Below are positions 4,310 through 26,265 of a stretch of DNA of 48,682 nt, one piece after another (the stretch's first letter is position 1; every line of letters starts with the position of its first letter). Below the pieces are notes generated by a model that was given only the letters and a program-made list of their open reading frames with translations, searched no databases and had not been told where the DNA came from. The DNA is from a virus (Duplodnaviria > Heunggongvirae > Uroviricota > Caudoviricetes), in IMG/VR virus record IMGVR_UViG_2511231131_000006, positions 1 through 48,682 of that record. One strand, written 5' to 3'. The translations under genes were made by a program, and so were the position numbers.

Positions 4310-4599
4310 TGCCAGCATCCTTTTTGTATCGGACGTAAACGGGCCAGCATTGAAAGAATGCATATTTTATTTAATAACTCCCGTTCGTGTTTTCTCTTGT
4401 TAATGGCATCTTCAGTAAATACAGGGTTACTGATAGTGACACCAATTTCAAAACAACCTTCAGACGTATTAACGTTTGGTAATAACGTTTCCATTATCGC
4501 GTCCTCAACAATGAATTTTGTGATGCGGTGCCTGGTGCCTCCAGGTGACGTTAACCAGTTAACAATTAACGCCGGATACAGTGAATCCCCCCATAACAC
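4306..4599 (-). CDS. Hypothetical small protein (start uncertain)
   Basis: 97-aa ORF. An internal start METLLPNV... at 4494 has a GAGGA Shine-Dalgarno. Translationally coupled to the downstream small ORF. Confidence 0.3.
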   Translation of the reverse strand: MLWGDSLYPALIVNWLTSPGGTRHRITKFIVEDAIMETLLPNVNTSEGCFEIGVTISNPVFTEDAINKRKHERELLNKICILSMLARLRPIQKGCWQ

Positions 4600-20838: not shown

Positions 20839-20919
20839 AAAATATCTGAGAGAGTTATTGCCTGTTACCATAAGAAAAAGCGACTTTAGTGGTCGCTTTT
20901 TGTGTCATATATAAGTCGT

Positions 20920-21144
20920 TTAAGTAAACCTGTCTGAACAGGTGCTCTGGTCGTGTTTGTCTTTGTTGGGTACAAATTGAGAATATTTTTCATTAATTAA
21001 TCTTCTTCTGCAGGCTTCAATAACCCACGCTGAAAAATTACCTGAACCTTTCTGGTCAAGAGCGATGTTAATTTGTTCAATCATCTGGTTTGGAAATCGG
21101 ATGTTGCGGGTTGTTGTTCTGCGGGTCCGGTTTTTCGGTGACAT
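20920..21144 (-). CDS. Hypothetical small DNA-binding protein
   Basis: 74-aa ORF with very basic N-terminus RTRRTTTRNIRFPNQMIEQINIALDQKG, suggesting a ribbon-helix-helix-like fold. Confidence 0.35.
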   Translation of the reverse strand: MSPKNRTRRTTTRNIRFPNQMIEQINIALDQKGSGNFSAWVIEACRRRLINEKYSQFVPNKDKHDQSTCSDRFT

Positions 21145-21185
21145 TTTCTTTCCTCTGGTGACAAGCTATATGGCGAGGATTTTAC

Positions 21186-21716
21186 ATGGCCGTGCTTCGT
21201 ACGTTACCGGGCAGAATCAAAACTCTGAATACCCGGCGGGTGAATGTCCTGAAGGGTGAACAGCGTCGGGTCAGTGGCAGTGCCCGGGTTTCCCTCAAGC
21301 GTCGTATCTGGCTGAGGGATGCCGGACAGTGCTGTCTCTGTGGGCGTGTGGTTGACCTTTGTGACAGTGAACTCGATCACCGCATTGCACTTCAGTTCGG
21401 TGGTGGTAATGAGGAGACGAATCTCTGGACGCTCTGTACCGAATGCCATCGCCAGAAGTCAGTCAGTGAAACGGCGAGTGGTATGCCGGACCCGACGCTG
21501 CCGGAGGTCATGGCAGGGCAGACGATATCATCGGACTGTGACCCGCCCCGGGGGGGGGATCATCCGGCGAAAAAAACGATCGCCCCGGACACCGCCCCCC
21601 GTCTCATGCAGAGAAAAAATTCCTGTTTCAGGCCAGTTAACATGTTAACTGGCTGCCCGGGCATTTTTTCGGTTTTTATCTTTATTATTCAGTTTGTTGT
21701 GCGAAAAAAATGTTAA
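21186..21716 (+). CDS. HNH endonuclease (packaging-associated); C-terminal extent uncertain
   Basis: HNH motif CCLCGRVVDLCDSELDHRIALQFGGGNEETNLWTLCTECHRQKS. The ORF runs through a G9 homopolymer (21550-21558) into the cos-like region, so the distal about 60 codons may not be real. Confidence 0.55.
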   Translation: MAVLRTLPGRIKTLNTRRVNVLKGEQRRVSGSARVSLKRRIWLRDAGQCCLCGRVVDLCDSELDHRIALQFGGGNEETNLWTLCTECHRQKSVSETASGMPDPTLPEVMAGQTISSDCDPPRGGDHPAKKTIAPDTAPRLMQRKNSCFRPVNMLTGCPGIFSVFIFIIQFVVRKKC

Positions 21717-21761
21717 CTGGCTTTTTCAGCAAATGTTAACCAGGCAGCAGTTAACATTTGC
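21633..21761. promoter_or_regulatory. Candidate cos / terminase recognition region (GTTAAC-centred palindromes)
   Basis: Perfect 20-bp palindrome CCAGTTAACATGTTAACTGG (21633-21652); AAATGTTAACTGGC (21707-21720); inverted repeat GCAAATGTTAAC-9nt-GTTAACATTTGC (21729-21761). Sits immediately upstream of terS. Confidence 0.35.
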
Positions 21762-21831
21762 GGCATGAGACGCCGGGAAAAATGGGCTGAACCATACCCG
21801 GCTGAGTGCGTTATGGACCCGGGAGGAGGCT

Positions 21832-22395
21832 GTGCTGACAACGCAAAAACGAAAATTTGCGCTGGCGCTCATGTCCGGGAAAAACAAAACAGCGTCAGCC
21901 CTTGCCGCCGGTTATTCGGCGAAGACCGCCAGGATTAAAGGCTCGCAGCTGGCAAAAGATCCGGAGGTGCTCGCGTTTATAGCCCGTAAACAGTGCGAAA
22001 CGGTGGAGGTGGATGAGGTTCCTGTTTACCGGCAGAAAAAATCAGAGCAGGAGGATAAACCCCGTCGCCGTGAGGTGGCTGCAATACCACAGCCGGACGA
22101 AACAAATCCGGAGATGCCTCCGCCCGCGGTGATATCTCATGGTATTGAATATATGGAGGATGGTCTTCCCGATCCGGTGAAAGCTATGGGGCAGATCCTG
22201 GTGGAAAACCTGATAATTGACCCGAAACTGGCACTGGATGCGGCCTGGCGACTGGCGCAGTTCACACACCATAAAAAAGGCGATGCCGGTAAAAAATCGG
22301 CAAAAGGTGATGCCGCGAAAAAAGCGGCTAACCGTTTTTCGGTGCCACCATCTCCCCGACTGGTGGTGAATAACCAGAATGAGGAAAGCGGATGA
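21832..22395 (+). CDS. Terminase small subunit
   Basis: 187 aa with GTG start after GGAGGAGG. N-terminal HTH-like segment, directly upstream of and overlapping terL. Confidence 0.65.
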   Translation: MLTTQKRKFALALMSGKNKTASALAAGYSAKTARIKGSQLAKDPEVLAFIARKQCETVEVDEVPVYRQKKSEQEDKPRRREVAAIPQPDETNPEMPPPAVISHGIEYMEDGLPDPVKAMGQILVENLIIDPKLALDAAWRLAQFTHHKKGDAGKKSAKGDAAKKAANRFSVPPSPRLVVNNQNEESG

Positions 22396-24053
22396 TACCT
22401 GTATGGAGCACGGCATGTCCGGACTGGGCAGAGCGCCTGAAAAAGGGACTGTCGATTATTCCGGCTCCGATTTATCCGGACCAGGCTGCACATGCACTGG
22501 CGATTTTTAAACAACTGCGGATTGTGGATGCACCGGGTAGCCCGACGTTCGGGGAGTCCTGCGCACAGTGGGTGTTTGACCTGGTGGCGGCCCTGTTTGG
22601 CTCCTATGATGCGCAGACCGGTGTACGCCATATCAAGGAAGTTTTTATCCTTATCCCCAAGAAAAACAGTAAGTCCACGCTGGCCGCGGGGATCATGATG
22701 ACGGCGCTGTTACTGAACTGGCGGCAGGCGGCGGGCTACACCATTCTGGCCCCGACCGTGGAGGTGGCGGCTAACGCCTTCAACCCTGCCAGGGATATGG
22801 TACGACGGGACGATGATCTGGATGACCTCTGTCAGGTGCAGACACATATCCGGACCATCACCCATCGGGTGACGGACACCACCCTGAAGGTGGTGGCAGC
22901 CGATCCGAATACGGTGTCCGGTATCAAGTCCGTGGGGACACTGATTGATGAACTGTGGCTGTTTGGCAAGCAGTACAAAGCGGAAGACATGCTACGTGAA
23001 GCCATCGGCGGGCTTGCCTCCCGTCCGGAAGGATTTGTGGTGTACACAACCACCCAGTCGAATGAACCGCCTGCCGGGGTGTTCAGACAGAAACTGCAGT
23101 ACGCCCGGGATGTCCGTGACGGCAAAATTCATGATCCGCACTTTCTGCCGGTGATTTTTGAGCATCCTCCTGAAATGGTGGAAAGCGGGGCTCACCTGCT
23201 GATGGAAAACCTCGCCATGGTTAACCCGAATCTCGGTTATTCGGTGGATGAGGCTTTTCTGTACCGGGAGTACCGTAAAGCCCGGGAGGCTGGTGAGGAA
23301 GCATTTCGTGGCTTCATGTCAAAACACGCCAATGTGGAAATCGGTCTTGCCCTGCGTTCTGACCGCTGGGCGGGCGCGGATTTCTGGGAGCAGCAGGGCA
23401 GGCGCGTCAGCCTGGACGATATCCTGCAGCGCGCTGATGTGGTGACGGTGGGGATTGACGGCGGGGGCCTGGATGATCTGCTGGGAATGTACGTGATTGG
23501 CCGTGACAGGGAAACCCGCGAATGGCTGGGCTGGGGCCATGCCTGGGTGCATGAAACCGCGGTGGTCAGACGGAAGAGTGAGGCATCCCGGTTTCAGGAT
23601 TTTGTGGCCTGTGGAGACATGACGATTGTCCGTCGGGTCGGGGATGACACGGCGGAAGTGGCGGAGTATGTGCGTCGTATTCATGAGGCTGAGTTACTGG
23701 ATCATATCGGTATTGACCCGTCAGGTGTGGGGCAGATTCTGGATTCACTGGCGGAAGCCGGGATCCCCGATGAGAGTGTGGTGGGGATAAGCCAGGGCTG
23801 GAAGCTGGGCGGGGCCATCAAAACCACCGAGCGCAAACTGGCTGAGGGAGTGCTGGTGCATGGTGGTCAGCCACTGATGGCCTGGTGCGTTGGCAATGCC
23901 CGGGTGGAGCCTAAAGGTAACGCCATTCTTATCACCAAACAGGCCAGCGGACGGGGAAAAATTGACCCGCTGATGGCGCTCTTCAATGCGGTGTCCCTGA
24001 TGTCCCTGAATCCGGAACCGAAAAAGAAAGCGTATGAGGTTTTTTTCATATAA
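22392..24053 (+). CDS. Terminase large subunit
   Basis: 553 aa with ATPase-like N-terminal region and nuclease-like C-terminal region (VGIDGGGLDD, IGIDPSGVG). Confidence 0.85.
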   Translation: MIPVWSTACPDWAERLKKGLSIIPAPIYPDQAAHALAIFKQLRIVDAPGSPTFGESCAQWVFDLVAALFGSYDAQTGVRHIKEVFILIPKKNSKSTLAAGIMMTALLLNWRQAAGYTILAPTVEVAANAFNPARDMVRRDDDLDDLCQVQTHIRTITHRVTDTTLKVVAADPNTVSGIKSVGTLIDELWLFGKQYKAEDMLREAIGGLASRPEGFVVYTTTQSNEPPAGVFRQKLQYARDVRDGKIHDPHFLPVIFEHPPEMVESGAHLLMENLAMVNPNLGYSVDEAFLYREYRKAREAGEEAFRGFMSKHANVEIGLALRSDRWAGADFWEQQGRRVSLDDILQRADVVTVGIDGGGLDDLLGMYVIGRDRETREWLGWGHAWVHETAVVRRKSEASRFQDFVACGDMTIVRRVGDDTAEVAEYVRRIHEAELLDHIGIDPSGVGQILDSLAEAGIPDESVVGISQGWKLGGAIKTTERKLAEGVLVHGGQPLMAWCVGNARVEPKGNAILITKQASGRGKIDPLMALFNAVSLMSLNPEPKKKAYEVFFI

Positions 24054-24116: not shown

Positions 24117-26054
24117 GTGACTCTTAAACGGGCCTGTTCCCTGCTGACGGTGAAATCCTTCAGTGAGGATGAACGGGTGATCACCGGGATTGCGTCAACG
24201 CCTTCTCCGGATCGGGATGGTGACATCCTGGAGCCGGAGGGGGCGGAGTTTGGCAGTGCGATCCCGTTTCTCTGGCAGCATGACTATTCCCGTCCGGTGG
24301 GCCAGTGTACGGTACGCCGGGTCAGTGAAGGTCTGGAAATCACGGCAACACTGGTGAAGCCCGTACCGGATATGCCGTCGCAGCTGGCTGCCCGGCTGGA
24401 TGAAGCCTGGGCTGCCATTAAGACCGGGCTGGTCAGGGGGCTTTCTGTGGGCTTCCGGCCCCATGAATACACTTATCTGGACGGAGGCGGACTGCATTTT
24501 CTGCGCTGGGAACTGATGGAGGTGTCTGCCGTCACCGTGCCCGCGAATGCGGAATGCACCATCCGGACCATTAAATCTTTCGGCAGCCCGTTTTCTGCCG
24601 CGTCCGGCAACCGGAGACCGGTGGTGAAAATCGCATCTTCTGCCGGCGCTTCGGCACAGTCAATAACCTCTTTTCATAAGGAAAAGTCAGCAATGAATAC
24701 TGGTGAACAGATTAAAAGTTTTGAAAACAAGCGTGCGGCGCTGGCAGCCTCCCTTGAGGAGATCATGAACAAAGCCGCAGAGGAAGGCCGCACACTGGAT
24801 GTGGAAGAGGAAGAGCACTACGACAACACCGCAGCGGAAATCCGTCAGGTGGATGCGCACCTGAAGCGTCTGCGTGAACTGGAAACCAGTAAGGCCGCCA
24901 CGGCACAGCCGGTGAAACAGGCCGGTAACGGGAATGTGGCCACGGTGGCTTCAGCGCCGGTGATCTGTGTTGAGCAGAAACTGGAGAAGGGGATTGGTTT
25001 CGCCCGCTTTGCCAAATCACTGGCCGCGGCTAAAGGTGTCCGCTCTGAAGCCCTGGAAGTGGCCCGTCGTCAGTATCCGGATGACAGTCGTCTGCATCAT
25101 GTCCTGAAATCGGCGGTGGGGGCAGGGACCACCACGGACCCACAGTGGGCAGGCAGCCTGTCTGAATATCAGGAATATGCGCAGGACTTTATTGATTACC
25201 TGCGTCCGCAGACCATTATCGGGCGATTTGGTCAGGGCGGGATCCCTGCACTTCGTCTGGTGCCGTTCAATATCCGCGTGCATGCCCAGGTGTCCGGCGG
25301 TGCTGCCGGCTGGGTGGGGGAGGGTAAGGCCAGACCCCTGACGAAGTTTGATTTTGAGTCCATCACCTTCAGTCATGCGAAGGTGTCGGCCATTGCGGTA
25401 CTGACGGAAGAGCTGATCCGCTTTTCCAGTCCGGCAGCTGATGCACTGGTCCGTAATGCGCTGGCAGAAGCGGTGGTGGCGCGTCTGGACACAGACTTTG
25501 TGGACCCGAAAAAAGCTGCAGTGGCAGATGTCTCCCCGGCGTCCATCACCCATGATGTGAAGGGCACGGCATCAACCGGTAACCCGGATGCGGATGCCGA
25601 GGCCGCGTTTGGCCAGTTTGTGACGGCAAATCTGCAGCCCACTGGTGCTGTCTGGCTGATGTCCAGCACGAATGCCCTGGCGCTGTCCATGCGTAAAAAT
25701 GCGCTGGGTCAGAAGGAATATCCGGACATGACCCTGCTGGGCGGGACCTTTCAGGGGCTTCCGGTGATTGTCTCCCAGTATGTGGGTGACCAGCTGGTAC
25801 TGGTGAATGCACCGGATATTTATCTGGCGGATGACGGCGGTGTGGCAGTGGATATGTCCCGTGAAGCGTCACTGGAAATGCAGTCTGAGCCGGGCGGCGA
25901 CAGCACCACACCGTCGCCGGTGGAGCTGGTTTCCATGTTCCAGACCGGCAGCGTGGCCATCCGTGCGGAGCGCTGGATCAACTGGCGTCGTCGCCGTACT
26001 GCGGCGGTGGCTGTGATCACCGGTGTGAACTACGGCAGTGCGTCCGGCGGCTGA
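24117..26054 (+). CDS. Fused prohead protease (HK97 family) - scaffold-like linker - major capsid protein
   Basis: 645 aa with GTG start after AGGAGG. N-terminal ~150 aa protease-like, a coiled-coil acidic linker, then an HK97-fold-like capsid region. Confidence 0.75.
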   Translation: MTLKRACSLLTVKSFSEDERVITGIASTPSPDRDGDILEPEGAEFGSAIPFLWQHDYSRPVGQCTVRRVSEGLEITATLVKPVPDMPSQLAARLDEAWAAIKTGLVRGLSVGFRPHEYTYLDGGGLHFLRWELMEVSAVTVPANAECTIRTIKSFGSPFSAASGNRRPVVKIASSAGASAQSITSFHKEKSAMNTGEQIKSFENKRAALAASLEEIMNKAAEEGRTLDVEEEEHYDNTAAEIRQVDAHLKRLRELETSKAATAQPVKQAGNGNVATVASAPVICVEQKLEKGIGFARFAKSLAAAKGVRSEALEVARRQYPDDSRLHHVLKSAVGAGTTTDPQWAGSLSEYQEYAQDFIDYLRPQTIIGRFGQGGIPALRLVPFNIRVHAQVSGGAAGWVGEGKARPLTKFDFESITFSHAKVSAIAVLTEELIRFSSPAADALVRNALAEAVVARLDTDFVDPKKAAVADVSPASITHDVKGTASTGNPDADAEAAFGQFVTANLQPTGAVWLMSSTNALALSMRKNALGQKEYPDMTLLGGTFQGLPVIVSQYVGDQLVLVNAPDIYLADDGGVAVDMSREASLEMQSEPGGDSTTPSPVELVSMFQTGSVAIRAERWINWRRRRTAAVAVITGVNYGSASGG

Positions 26055-26265
26055 GTCTGATGAGGAGGGCGGGAGGTGAGAGCGTCCCGCAGTAACTGAT
26101 GGCAAAAATCCGATATCTGCAGGGTACACATGATGCCCGGCCCGGGGATATCCGGGATGTCGCACAGCCGTGTGCGGAGGTGCTGGTTCGCCTGGGAAAG
26201 GCGGAGTACATCACAGCGCGACGTCCGGCGGGTCAGAAAAAGAAACATGATGCGGAGCATAGCGA

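Follow-up and report, generated by a model that had tools for sequence, protein, structure and literature searches.

The interval between the HNH gene and terS in a lambdoid Escherichia coli prophage as a predicted cos packaging site of the HK97-type, HNH-assisted class

The region between the HNH endonuclease gene and the small terminase gene (terS) in the window, which here denotes the whole 48,682-nucleotide stretch of viral DNA that was analyzed, is predicted from its sequence to be the cos packaging site of an ordinary, widespread Escherichia coli prophage. Very probably the interval is the cos site of an HK97-type, HNH-assisted packaging module in a lambdoid E. coli prophage, including the full mechanism proposed below, and as such it is an ordinary member of an already known kind. 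Kala et al. 2014 is reportedly the source of this packaging class. Its characteristic arrangement, an HNH gene directly upstream of terS and terL, is found in the window and in 18 of 18 distant relatives, and the gene order of the module is HNH, terS, terL, an S78 protease-capsid fusion and an HK97-type portal. The HK97-type head genes (TerL, portal, prohead protease and capsid) are all present, with a Peptidase_S78 + Phage_capsid fusion in the Pfam assignment and a portal that matches Phage_portal (PF04860) with 270 bits. The terS gene (21832..22395, + strand) has a GTG start and encodes a Pfam Terminase_2 protein of PHROG 641, a small terminase of the N-terminal helix-turn-helix type (PF03592, score 31.8 bits, cutoff 26.1, residues 2–57). 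A search of solved structures for this TerS gave no significant match, the weak PDB match being 4zc3, a 68-aa small terminase chain (E=0.5). The large terminase gene, terL (22392..24053, + strand), belongs to the Pfam families of HK97 gp2 (PF03354 and PF20441) and matches HK97 gp2 (E=1e-11) and the TerL of SfV (E=4e-23) in BLASTP.

The cut is probably made at the C-run 10-mer at 21593..21602 (+ strand), CGCCCCCCGT, a predicted cohesive end (cosN) with a 10-nt 3' overhang that contains the C6 run at 21595-21600. This assignment is anchored by homology to the Stx1 phage Lys8385Vzw (MT225100), which has 3' cohesive ends of sequence CGCCCCCCCT, mapped by PhageTerm (PMC7946995) to a C-run homologous to that of the window. 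Lys8385Vzw is ~95% identical to the window across the cos region; its record ends in ...GGACACCGCCCCCCCT and starts with CTCACGCAGAGAAAAAATTCC...GTTAACATGTTAACTGG, both collinear with window positions 21587-21652. The two 10-mers differ by one base, and this one PhageTerm result serves as the homology anchor. The exact 10-mer of the window is also found in phages 1717 and phi330, the record of the latter being named as a virion isolate, and in 32 of the 108 loci of our census. The first-pass annotation had proposed a cos region in this segment and named the GTTAAC palindromes as its candidate elements. The location is borne out, as the termini of a relative fall inside the interval, but the palindromes are not the cohesive end, which is predicted at the C-run.

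From the HNH gene to terS, the window is 90–97% identical to Lys8385Vzw, Stx2 phage 1717, BP-4795, 2851 and phi330, with a shared gene order, and the same five ATGTTAAC copies are present in Lys8385Vzw and Pankowvirus-type phages. The window departs from the Lys8385Vzw type in having CGCCCCCCGT rather than CGCCCCCCCT, a G9 rather than a G7 run, and a loss of 10 bp, which puts the HNH C-terminus out of frame. While the packaging region matches the Pankowvirus phages 1717 and BP-4795, the backbone matches ompW-integrated EHEC prophages, to which the remainder of the window genome is closest, unlike the Lys8385Vzw type.

Throughout the interval from the G-run to terS, conservation is 95–100% among approximately 94 closely related E. 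coli copies, all of them chosen for carrying the exact palindrome. Because the interval is uniformly conserved and the loci were selected on the palindrome, their conservation profile could not separate individual elements, and distant relatives were therefore needed. These comprise 18 prophage sequences from a dozen enterobacterial genera, with TerS proteins 37–47% identical to that of the window. A 16-sequence alignment from the G-run to the palindrome contains three gap characters in total across 100 columns (21550-21649). The GGACAC box (21587..21592, + strand), which abuts the cohesive end on its left, has an identity of 0.88, and GA(C/A)ACC is invariant in the relatives. The right flank of the cut (21603..21623, + strand), composed of CTCATGC and AGAGAAAAAATTCC with an A6 tract at 21614-21619, has identities of 0.92 and 0.89, respectively, over 16 lineages. 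It is a possible shape-recognition element for terminase or TerS; in HK97, an A-tract is part of the minimal TerS site, which extends from +15 to +29 (PMC11331095). An inverted repeat, CCCCCCGTCTCATGC / GCATGAGACGCCGGG, flanking the GTTAAC cluster was judged to be due to chance because its left arm is lost in relatives (CTCACGC).

The G9 run (21550..21558, + strand) is the sole run of at least eight G or C residues in the 48.7-kb window, and its 3' edge lies 44 nt before the predicted cut. A G-run is present in every copy examined, ranging from G6 to G13 among E. coli copies and from G6 to G9 in 17 distant relatives, where it stands 43–45 nt from the cut. The distance from its 3' edge to the cut is 45 nt in 15 of the 18 distant relatives (range 43–45), whereas the distance from the HNH stop codon to the G-run varies from 12 to 105 nt in the same set. 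The 28-nt spacer that separates the G-run from the cut-site box (21559..21586, + strand) includes the A7 run at 21570-21576 and is conserved in length and not in sequence: its mean pairwise identity is 0.53, and the A-run is absent from the distant relatives. Some of the differences in G-run length may be homopolymer assembly errors, and the constant spacing could derive in part from shared descent rather than from selection.

On the terS side, the palindromes begin 31 bp from the cut. The largest is a perfect 22-bp palindrome, GCCAGTTAACATGTTAACTGGC (21632..21653, unstranded; identity 0.94), in which two inverted ATGTTAAC half-sites occupy +34 to +47 from the cut. It extends the 20-bp palindrome CCAGTTAACATGTTAACTGG (21633-21652) recognized in the first-pass annotation; the further ATGTTAACTGG copy (21710-21720) and the 12-bp inverted repeat GCAAATGTTAAC / GTTAACATTTGC (21729-21740 / 21750-21761) reported there were likewise found. 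Within 21708..21761, three further ATGTTAAC sites, at 21710-21720 (+), 21733-21743 (+) and 21747-21757 (-), are candidate accessory TerS sites. The clustering is pronounced, with five GTTAAC sites in 120 bp versus 13 across the 48.7-kb window (Poisson P ~2.5e-11), and five of the eight matches to the 11-mer ATGTTAACYRG (at most one mismatch; 2.2 expected) fall in the cos region. The distance from cos to terS is 229 nt in the window versus 38–39 nt in the relatives, the E. coli lineage having ~190 bp extra with three more GTTAAC-type copies. A T-rich spacer (21654..21707, + strand) forms part of this insertion and contains a weak hairpin and T-run at 21657-21672.

The center of the 22-bp palindrome contains an ATG (21642-21644), and in 18 relatives this central ATG is the start codon of terS. 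The pattern GT(T/A)AAC-ATG-TTAAC is invariant at +34 to +47 in the relatives, overlapping the terS start. Codons 2–3 of terS (TTA ACA) are free of synonymous substitutions in all 18 sequences, in contrast to codons 4, 5, 7, 8, 9, 10 and 16, which vary; since codons 12, 13 and 15 are likewise invariant, codon invariance alone is no proof of a cis element. Three lineages in which terS begins with ATGCTA, ATGCTG or GTGCTG (Proteus, a Pantoea and the window) retain GTTAAC upstream, in non-coding DNA and at a similar distance from the cut. The 22-bp palindrome can thus be read as a putative vestige of the ancestral terS start and the candidate primary TerS site. The proposal that the GTTAAC repeats are terminase-binding elements holds up well, as they are good candidates, and likely ones, for TerS binding. 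Because the ancestral palindrome overlaps the start codon, TerS binding there could also control TerS synthesis.

The HNH open reading frame of the window (21186..21716, + strand; 176 aa) is a frameshifted allele. Its HNH (beta-beta-alpha metal) motif (PF01844, score 27.2 bits, cutoff 21.4) spans residues 49–92, or nt 21330-21461, in agreement with an end placed earlier near 21470, and lies upstream of the frameshift. Residues 1 to ~106 are canonical, and the last ~70 are an out-of-frame read-through across cos. At the junction (21501..21508, + strand) relatives have CCGGAGGTGTCCGGAGGTCA and the window a single CCGGAGGTCA; the 10 bp lost are one copy of a CCGGAGGT direct repeat, and the duplicated form is present in 84 of the 108 census loci. 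Loss of 10 bp between the CCGGAGGT repeats shifts the frame, so that it runs through all three homopolymers. The canonical stop codon (21539..21541, + strand), TGA in the window and TAA in many relatives, is thereby put out of frame, and the conserved canonical C-terminus, which ends in DDIIGL, is lost. On this comparison the 176-aa frame is a by-product of the deletion, and the HNH protein of this prophage may or may not still work. In PPompW prophages cos, terS and terL are kept and the HNH gene is lost; these prophages may rely on HNH proteins from co-resident prophages.

Among phages with mapped ends, HK97 has 10-nt 3' overhangs, and its HNH protein gp74 stimulates cos cleavage by terminase, an activity shown only for gp74 (cited in PMC11331095, PMC9410871). 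As in the window, cos in HK97 is directly preceded by the HNH gene, which occupies the right end of the genome; the 3' overhang is a C-rich 10-mer, and the cut is closely followed by an A/T tract. HK97 also has a G9 run (39,674-39,682 of NC_002167), with ATCA after it, 42 nt from its mapped end, compared with 44 nt in the window, and its TerL, portal, protease and capsid are assigned to the same Pfam families as those of the window. The two systems differ in their TerS proteins (PHROG 5601 in HK97 versus 641; gp1 BLASTP E=1.1), and the analogy for TerS is weak because these proteins are unrelated in sequence. The HNH proteins are also undetectably similar by BLASTP (gp74, E=0.22), so that of gp74, gp1 and TerL only TerL is detectably homologous to the window. 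Moreover, HK97 lacks the GTTAAC repeats, has 49 nt between cos and terS instead of 229 nt, and carries an additional ORF plus AT-rich repeats in the stretch that separates the HNH gene from the G-run.

The Shigella phages SfV and SfI have a C-rich 10-nt end, TGCCCGCCCC, determined by direct sequencing (PMC3636060). Their HNH gene likewise lies directly upstream of cos, and a G-rich run plus TCAAATC (in SfV, GGGGAGGGGCGGG+TCAAATC) stands 41 nt from the 10-mer. In SfV, CCGGAC immediately precedes the 10-mer, where the window has GGACAC, and a T7 tract immediately follows it. Both phages differ from the window in having a TerS of the Terminase_4 / P27 family, an interrupted G-run and no GTTAAC repeats.

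The cos site of phage lambda is tripartite, with cosQ, which termination requires, ~30 bp upstream of the nicking site, the nicking site itself, and the R sites of cosB. The R sites are repeated small-terminase sites in both orientations, located between the nicking site and the small terminase gene. Lambda has 12-nt 5' overhangs, needs no HNH protein, and uses gpNu1 and an IHF site. The tripartite cosQ-cosN-cosB logic is common to lambda and the window, but the sequences are unrelated. A lambda-type cos in the window was rejected: cosN GGGCGGCGACCT, with up to two mismatches, has three matches versus 4.6 expected by chance, none of them near terS. The IHF consensus WATCARNNNNTTR, sought as a site in the T-rich spacer, has no match in 21000-22000.

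Other explanations of these elements were weighed against the cos reading. In the first-pass annotation the GTTAAC palindromes were taken as the cos cut or recognition site and the G9, A7 and C6 runs as slippage sites for alternative HNH C-termini, whether programmed or phase-variable. The coordinates of the three runs and the open frame that crosses them in the window are correct, the G-run is polymorphic in length, and in the few deletion alleles the tail (176, 153 or 151 aa) follows G-run length. In 89 of 98 E. coli relatives and in all 18 distant relatives, however, the canonical HNH protein (121 aa) ends before the G-run is reached. The context of its stop is CTGTGA or CTGTAA in all copies, so that termination is maintained despite TGA/TAA substitution. 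Slippage could not restore the conserved C-terminus, whose codons precede the tract. The tails found in deletion alleles are unconserved and unrelated to each other, and in the NCBI PGAP annotation the identical allele is an HNH pseudogene with a missing C-terminus. The mapped termini of Lys8385Vzw lie at the C-run, and the C6 run is accordingly part of a predicted cohesive end instead of a slippage site. This explanation is already largely refuted, and we give it hardly any weight. The comparison instead points to the G-run as a conserved part of cos that is normally non-coding, read through in the window owing to the 10-bp deletion. It is also rather improbable that the 22-bp palindrome and the T-runs downstream act at the level of RNA or transcription, whether as an attenuator or intrinsic terminator that separates the lysis/HNH genes from the terminase genes or as an operator for a regulator other than TerS. 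The palindrome does fold as a 10-bp RNA hairpin (-16.8 kcal/mol, z = -2.8), a weak terminator-like hairpin with a T-run lies at 21657-21672, and, with the palindrome on the terS start codon in relatives, a bound protein or hairpin could control terS translation. Yet the T-run starts 11 nt past the main stem (hairpin 21631-21654), with 11 non-U nucleotides between, which excludes a canonical intrinsic terminator. Only the weak 5-bp stem at 21657-21672 fits the terminator scan, which gave four hits in the region, no excess over shuffles (2.5), and a search of the region against Rfam found no RNA family at E<=1. Late lambdoid transcription, moreover, must read through to the head genes, and the distance from the motif to the cut is fixed across genera even where the motif is non-coding, which argues for a role in packaging.

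The G-run might also be a neutral, hypermutable homopolymer beside cos, functionless and conserved by inheritance and mutational persistence. Its length varies widely (G6–G13), it is an endpoint for deletions and an IS insertion, and the HK97 packaging literature examined makes no mention of an upstream G-tract requirement; a literature search for G-tracts in cos sites likewise found nothing relevant. We nevertheless consider this explanation unlikely, as at least G6 is kept in every lineage examined while the 10 nt upstream are 31% and the spacer 53% identical. Indels are common just upstream, whereas the 3' edge stays at a fixed distance from the cut, and HK97 and SfV have an equivalent G-run equally far from the cut despite their different TerS families and undetectably similar HNH proteins. 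Somewhat short of an even chance, in our estimation, is a more specific proposal: that the G-run is a cosQ-like element of fixed position, present in enterobacterial HNH-assisted 3'-cos sites regardless of TerS family (HK97, SfV and Pankowvirus types) and read by a shared TerL/HNH pair. The GTTAAC palindrome would then be the TerS-specific half, which ancestrally overlapped the terS start and was uncoupled and multiplied in the E. coli lineage.

For the HNH-assisted cos site, we infer the following assignment of binding proteins to elements. TerS would bind rightward of the cut through its Terminase_2-type N-terminal DNA-binding region. Its targets there (+8 to +50) would be the conserved A-tract and the ATGTTAAC palindrome, joined in the E. 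coli lineage by the three extra ATGTTAAC copies further on. TerL would be recruited by TerS and, assisted by HNH, would nick twice, 10 nt apart, at CGCCCCCCGT to leave the 3' overhangs, so that the left genome end would begin at 21603 and the right one would finish at 21602. Packaging would proceed rightwards from terS and terminate at the next cos. The G-run would most likely position TerL or HNH, as a part comparable to lambda cosQ; being fixed 44–45 bp to the left of the cut, it would lie at the extreme terminus of the packaged chromosome. Since it is a homopolymer and forms the outer margin of the site, it could drift in length from G6 to G13 with the critical spacing unchanged.

These results place the predicted genome ends of a very common E. 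coli prophage family, which is present in 23% of complete E. coli genomes and includes many Stx1 and Stx2 phages. The long HNH ORF of O55:H7-type copies represents a frameshifted allele, and its annotation as an intact protein should be avoided. The site also provides a testable map of HNH-assisted cos, with a length-tolerant G-run at a fixed distance, a 10-nt cut, an A-tract and a palindromic candidate TerS site, and the conserved G-run of HK97 itself is open to direct testing with the in vitro packaging system already available for that phage.

A reading of positions 20900–22400 recovered every feature listed in the first-pass annotation. The ORF at 21186–21716 (176 aa), in which the Pfam HNH match is limited to residues 49–92, crosses three homopolymers: a G9 run (21550–21558), the only G or C run of at least eight nucleotides in the window, an A7 run (21570–21576) and a C6 run (21595–21600). 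Further on lie the palindrome CCAGTTAACATGTTAACTGG (21633–21652; a perfect 22 bp once the flanking G and C are counted), a further copy of ATGTTAACTGG (21710–21720) and a 12-bp inverted repeat with arms at 21729–21740 and 21750–21761. A 120-bp stretch holds five of the 13 GTTAAC sites in the window (Poisson P ~2.5e-11), a clustering that is not due to chance. A second close GTTAAC pair, at 4548–4565 (ACGTTAACCAGTTAACAA), is similar to the repeat of the cos region, each copy having one mismatch.

The HNH gene is preceded by lysis genes, a PerC homologue and a minus-strand DUF3950/YlcI-YnfO gene, and is followed by terS (Pfam Terminase_2), terL, an S78 protease-capsid fusion, an HK97-type portal, head-completion genes and the tail tube. 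At 24117–27630, the fusion (645 aa) stands between terL and the portal, whereas the HK97 portal gene comes before those for protease and capsid. A search with 801 bp around the cos interval retrieved 93 phage records at 90–97% identity; the records belong to Stx1 and Stx2 phages of Pankowvirus type (1717, BP-4795, 2851, phi330 and the like). Over its first 25 kb, the window is nearest to ompW-integrated EHEC prophages. Of 5,426 complete E. coli genomes, 1,243 contain the interval 21540–21830; it occurs at 2,947 places in total, with as many as seven in a single genome, and the prophage module is very common in this species.

The placement of a cos region here was correct, and the cohesive end of a close relative had already been published. 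Lys8385Vzw is related to phage 1717; PhageTerm analysis of the induced phage gave 3' cohesive ends of sequence CGCCCCCCCT (PMC7946995). The deposited genome ends in ...GATCGCTCCGGACACCGCCCCCCCT and starts with CTCACGCAGAGAAAAAATTCCCGTTTCAGGGCAGTTAACATGTTAACTGG, and its ends are collinear with window positions 21578–21652. The homologous 10-mer of the window is CGCCCCCCGT (21593–21602), which includes the C6 run. Of 108 related loci, 32 share this variant, as do phages 1717 and phi330, and CGCGCCCCCT is the commonest variant. Because of this homology to mapped ends, the predicted cut separates 21602 from 21603, and the second nick would lie 10 nt leftward. The GTTAAC palindrome, which had been proposed as a candidate cos element, begins about 30 bp from this point on the terS side and is not the predicted cut.

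The homopolymers had also been regarded as candidate slippage sites that could alter the HNH C-terminus. Phages 1717, phi330 and Lys8385Vzw carry 10 extra bp (CCGGAGGTGTCCGGAGGTCA, as against a single CCGGAGGTCA at 21501–21510 in the window), with which the HNH gene encodes 121 aa and ends at a TGA corresponding to 21539–21541, 8 nt before the G-run. IMG/VR supplied about 100 related copies; the 121-aa form occurs in 89 of 98, with the stop kept as TGA or TAA and a conserved C-terminus ...(R/G)(A/E)DDI(I/T)GL. The 176-aa form is confined to the window, phage JLK-2012 and one more locus, and the remaining deletion alleles encode 151–154 aa, a length set by that of the G-run. An identical allele in the O55:H7 strain CB9615 is labelled by NCBI as an HNH pseudogene "missing C-terminus", and an O26 strain with identical intergenic sequence has a normal HNH gene of 366 nt. 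By these comparisons, a frameshifted allele accounts for the long HNH ORF, and the open frame across the homopolymers is a by-product. Since the conserved tail is encoded upstream of the G-run, slippage there cannot restore it, and slippage control of HNH was rejected.

The architecture of the region was examined in more distant phages. Salmonella phage FSL SP-016, with HNH and TerS proteins 69% and 47% identical to those of the window, retains the non-coding CCCCGGGGGGGGTATCATCC...GGACACCGCCCCCCCTCTCAT...CAGAAAAAAT nearly intact. A TerS alignment search returned 20 loci, of which 18 were full-length and were analyzed (Serratia, Enterobacter, Atlantibacter, Rouxiella, Kosakonia, Kluyvera, Phytobacter, Erwinia, Citrobacter, Pantoea, Proteus and Buttiauxella; TerS 37–47% identical); an HNH gene lies upstream in every one of them. 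Sixteen of these sequences align with essentially no gaps and share a common layout, consisting of a G6–G9 run, a 27–28-nt spacer, GA(C/A)ACC, a C-rich 10-mer, CTCA(C/T)(G/T)C, CAGAAAAAAT, a Shine-Dalgarno sequence and T(A/T)AAC-ATG-TTAAC, whose ATG is the terS start. Mean pairwise identity is 0.31 just upstream of the G-run, 0.82 in the run, 0.53 in the spacer, 0.88 in GGACAC, 0.78 in the 10-mer, 0.92 in the right flank of the cut, 0.89 in the A-tract and 0.94 in the palindrome. The A7 run is part of the spacer, which varies, and the distant relatives lack it.

Measured from its 3' edge, the G-run lies 45 nt from the cut in 15 of the 18 relatives (range 43–45), whereas the HNH stop precedes the run by anything from 12 to 105 nt; the run itself ranges from G6 to G13 among E. 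coli copies. A purely neutral G-run would poorly explain the spacing to the cut. The alignments argue that the G-run is a conserved non-coding cos element, length-tolerant and at a fixed distance from the cut, and HK97 and SfV share such a run. In HK97, a G9 run followed by ATCA ends 42 nt before the right genome end, which reads ...GGCAGGGGGGGGGATCAAATCTTCAAAACCTTTGCCCCAAATGACCGCCGCCAAA with a C-rich terminal 10-mer. In SfV, GGGGAGGGGCGGG followed by TCAAATC lies 41 nt before the end of TGCCCGCCCC, the 10-mer of SfI/SfV established by direct sequencing (PMC3636060); CCGGAC directly precedes it and a T7 tract directly follows. The G-run is not discussed in the HK97 packaging literature examined. 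On overhangs, the discussion of PMC9410871 gives 10-nt 5' for lambda and 12-nt 3' for HK97, whereas its figure legend and PMC11331095 give 10-nt 3' for HK97; the numbers appear to be swapped in that discussion.

The TerS families of the three phage groups differ (Terminase_2/PHROG 641 in the window, PHROG 5601 in HK97, Terminase_4/PHROG 83 in SfV), and their HNH proteins have no BLASTP similarity to one another. TerL of the window is homologous to those of HK97 (E=1e-11) and SfV (E=4e-23). We infer that the two halves of cos follow different partners: the left, between G-run and cut, follows the shared TerL/HNH nuclease, and the right follows the particular TerS.

Between the HNH stop and the G-run, HK97 (39,620–39,680) and several distant relatives (L134, L138, L143, L144, L145, L147 and L151) are AT-rich with repeated AATGAT/ATCATT-type motifs, such as ATTTGAAATCATTT and AAATGAGAAT; the window is devoid of such a stretch and has only ATCATCC, directly after the G-run. 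In the ompW-integrated EHEC prophages PPompW (L003, LC567826), the 5.95 kb between a G7 run (window 15593–15599) and the cos G-run, with the lysis genes, PerC, DUF3950 and HNH, are deleted and ISEc20 (IS110 family) occupies the junction. The deletion recurs, with no IS, in the IMG/VR locus L068 (junction CTTTC-GGGGG-ATCATCC). Its two endpoints fall in G homopolymers. As the HNH gene is absent and cos, terS and terL are retained, these prophages may need HNH supplied in trans.

The origin of the GTTAAC sites lies in an ancestral terS start region. Codons 1–3 of terS (ATG TTA ACA) show no synonymous variation in the 18 relatives, in which codons 4, 5, 7, 8, 9, 10 and 16 vary. This argument is only supportive, because codons 12, 13 and 15 (GCG CTG .. 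TCC; window 21865–21879) are also nucleotide-invariant in these lineages (L134–L151) among synonymously varying neighbours; codons 12–16 may represent a further conserved element, of DNA or RNA, within terS. More telling is that GTTAAC persists upstream, in a non-coding position +34 to +41 relative to the cut, in three lineages (Proteus, a Pantoea and the window) whose terS starts with ATGCTA, ATGCTG or GTGCTG. In the window, the ancestral site survives as the 22-bp palindrome (+34 to +47), and its Shine-Dalgarno sequence is lost. About 190 extra bp follow, with T-rich sequence and another three copies of ATGTTAAC, which occur in both orientations; terS starts at a GTG (21832), 229 nt from the cut as against 38–39 nt in relatives. 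Short direct repeats (such as AACATGTTAACTGGCT/AAAATGTTAACTGGCT, GCGAAAAAAA twice, CTGTTTCAG/CTTTTTCAG) suggest local duplication as the source of the extra copies. The vestigial ATG at the palindrome centre opens a 24-codon hydrophobic ORF (MLTGCPGIFSVFIFIIQFVVRKKC; 21642–21716) that lacks a Shine-Dalgarno sequence, shares the frame of the HNH read-through tail and is conserved among E. coli copies, as is the whole interval.

The position of GTTAAC, its palindromic form, its association with one TerS family and its multiplication are consistent with a candidate site of small-terminase recognition, whose role would resemble that of the lambda cosB R sites. The invariant A-tract (21610–21621) may also belong to the recognition surface, because the minimal HK97 TerS site, at +15 to +29, includes an A-tract (PMC11331095). 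The palindrome RNA could form a 10-bp hairpin (−16.8 kcal/mol); a terminator was rejected, as the T-run begins 11 nt later and terminator-like matches are no commoner than in shuffles. Searches of the cos region found no Rfam family, IHF consensus or lambda-type cosN. The four IHF consensus matches of the window (WATCARNNNNTTR) all cluster at 45986–46569, two as an overlapping inverted pair, in what is probably the attachment-site region.

The site is thus an ordinary HK97-type HNH-assisted cos site of a known kind. To the end already published for Lys8385Vzw, the analysis adds a predicted cut at the C-run, a conserved, length-tolerant G-run element at a fixed position, shared with HK97 and SfV, the origin of GTTAAC in the ancestral terS start and the frameshift behind the long HNH ORF. 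It is possible, and in our judgement slightly short of probable, that HNH-assisted cos sites generally combine a cosQ-like G-tract with a TerS site that overlaps the start codon of terS.
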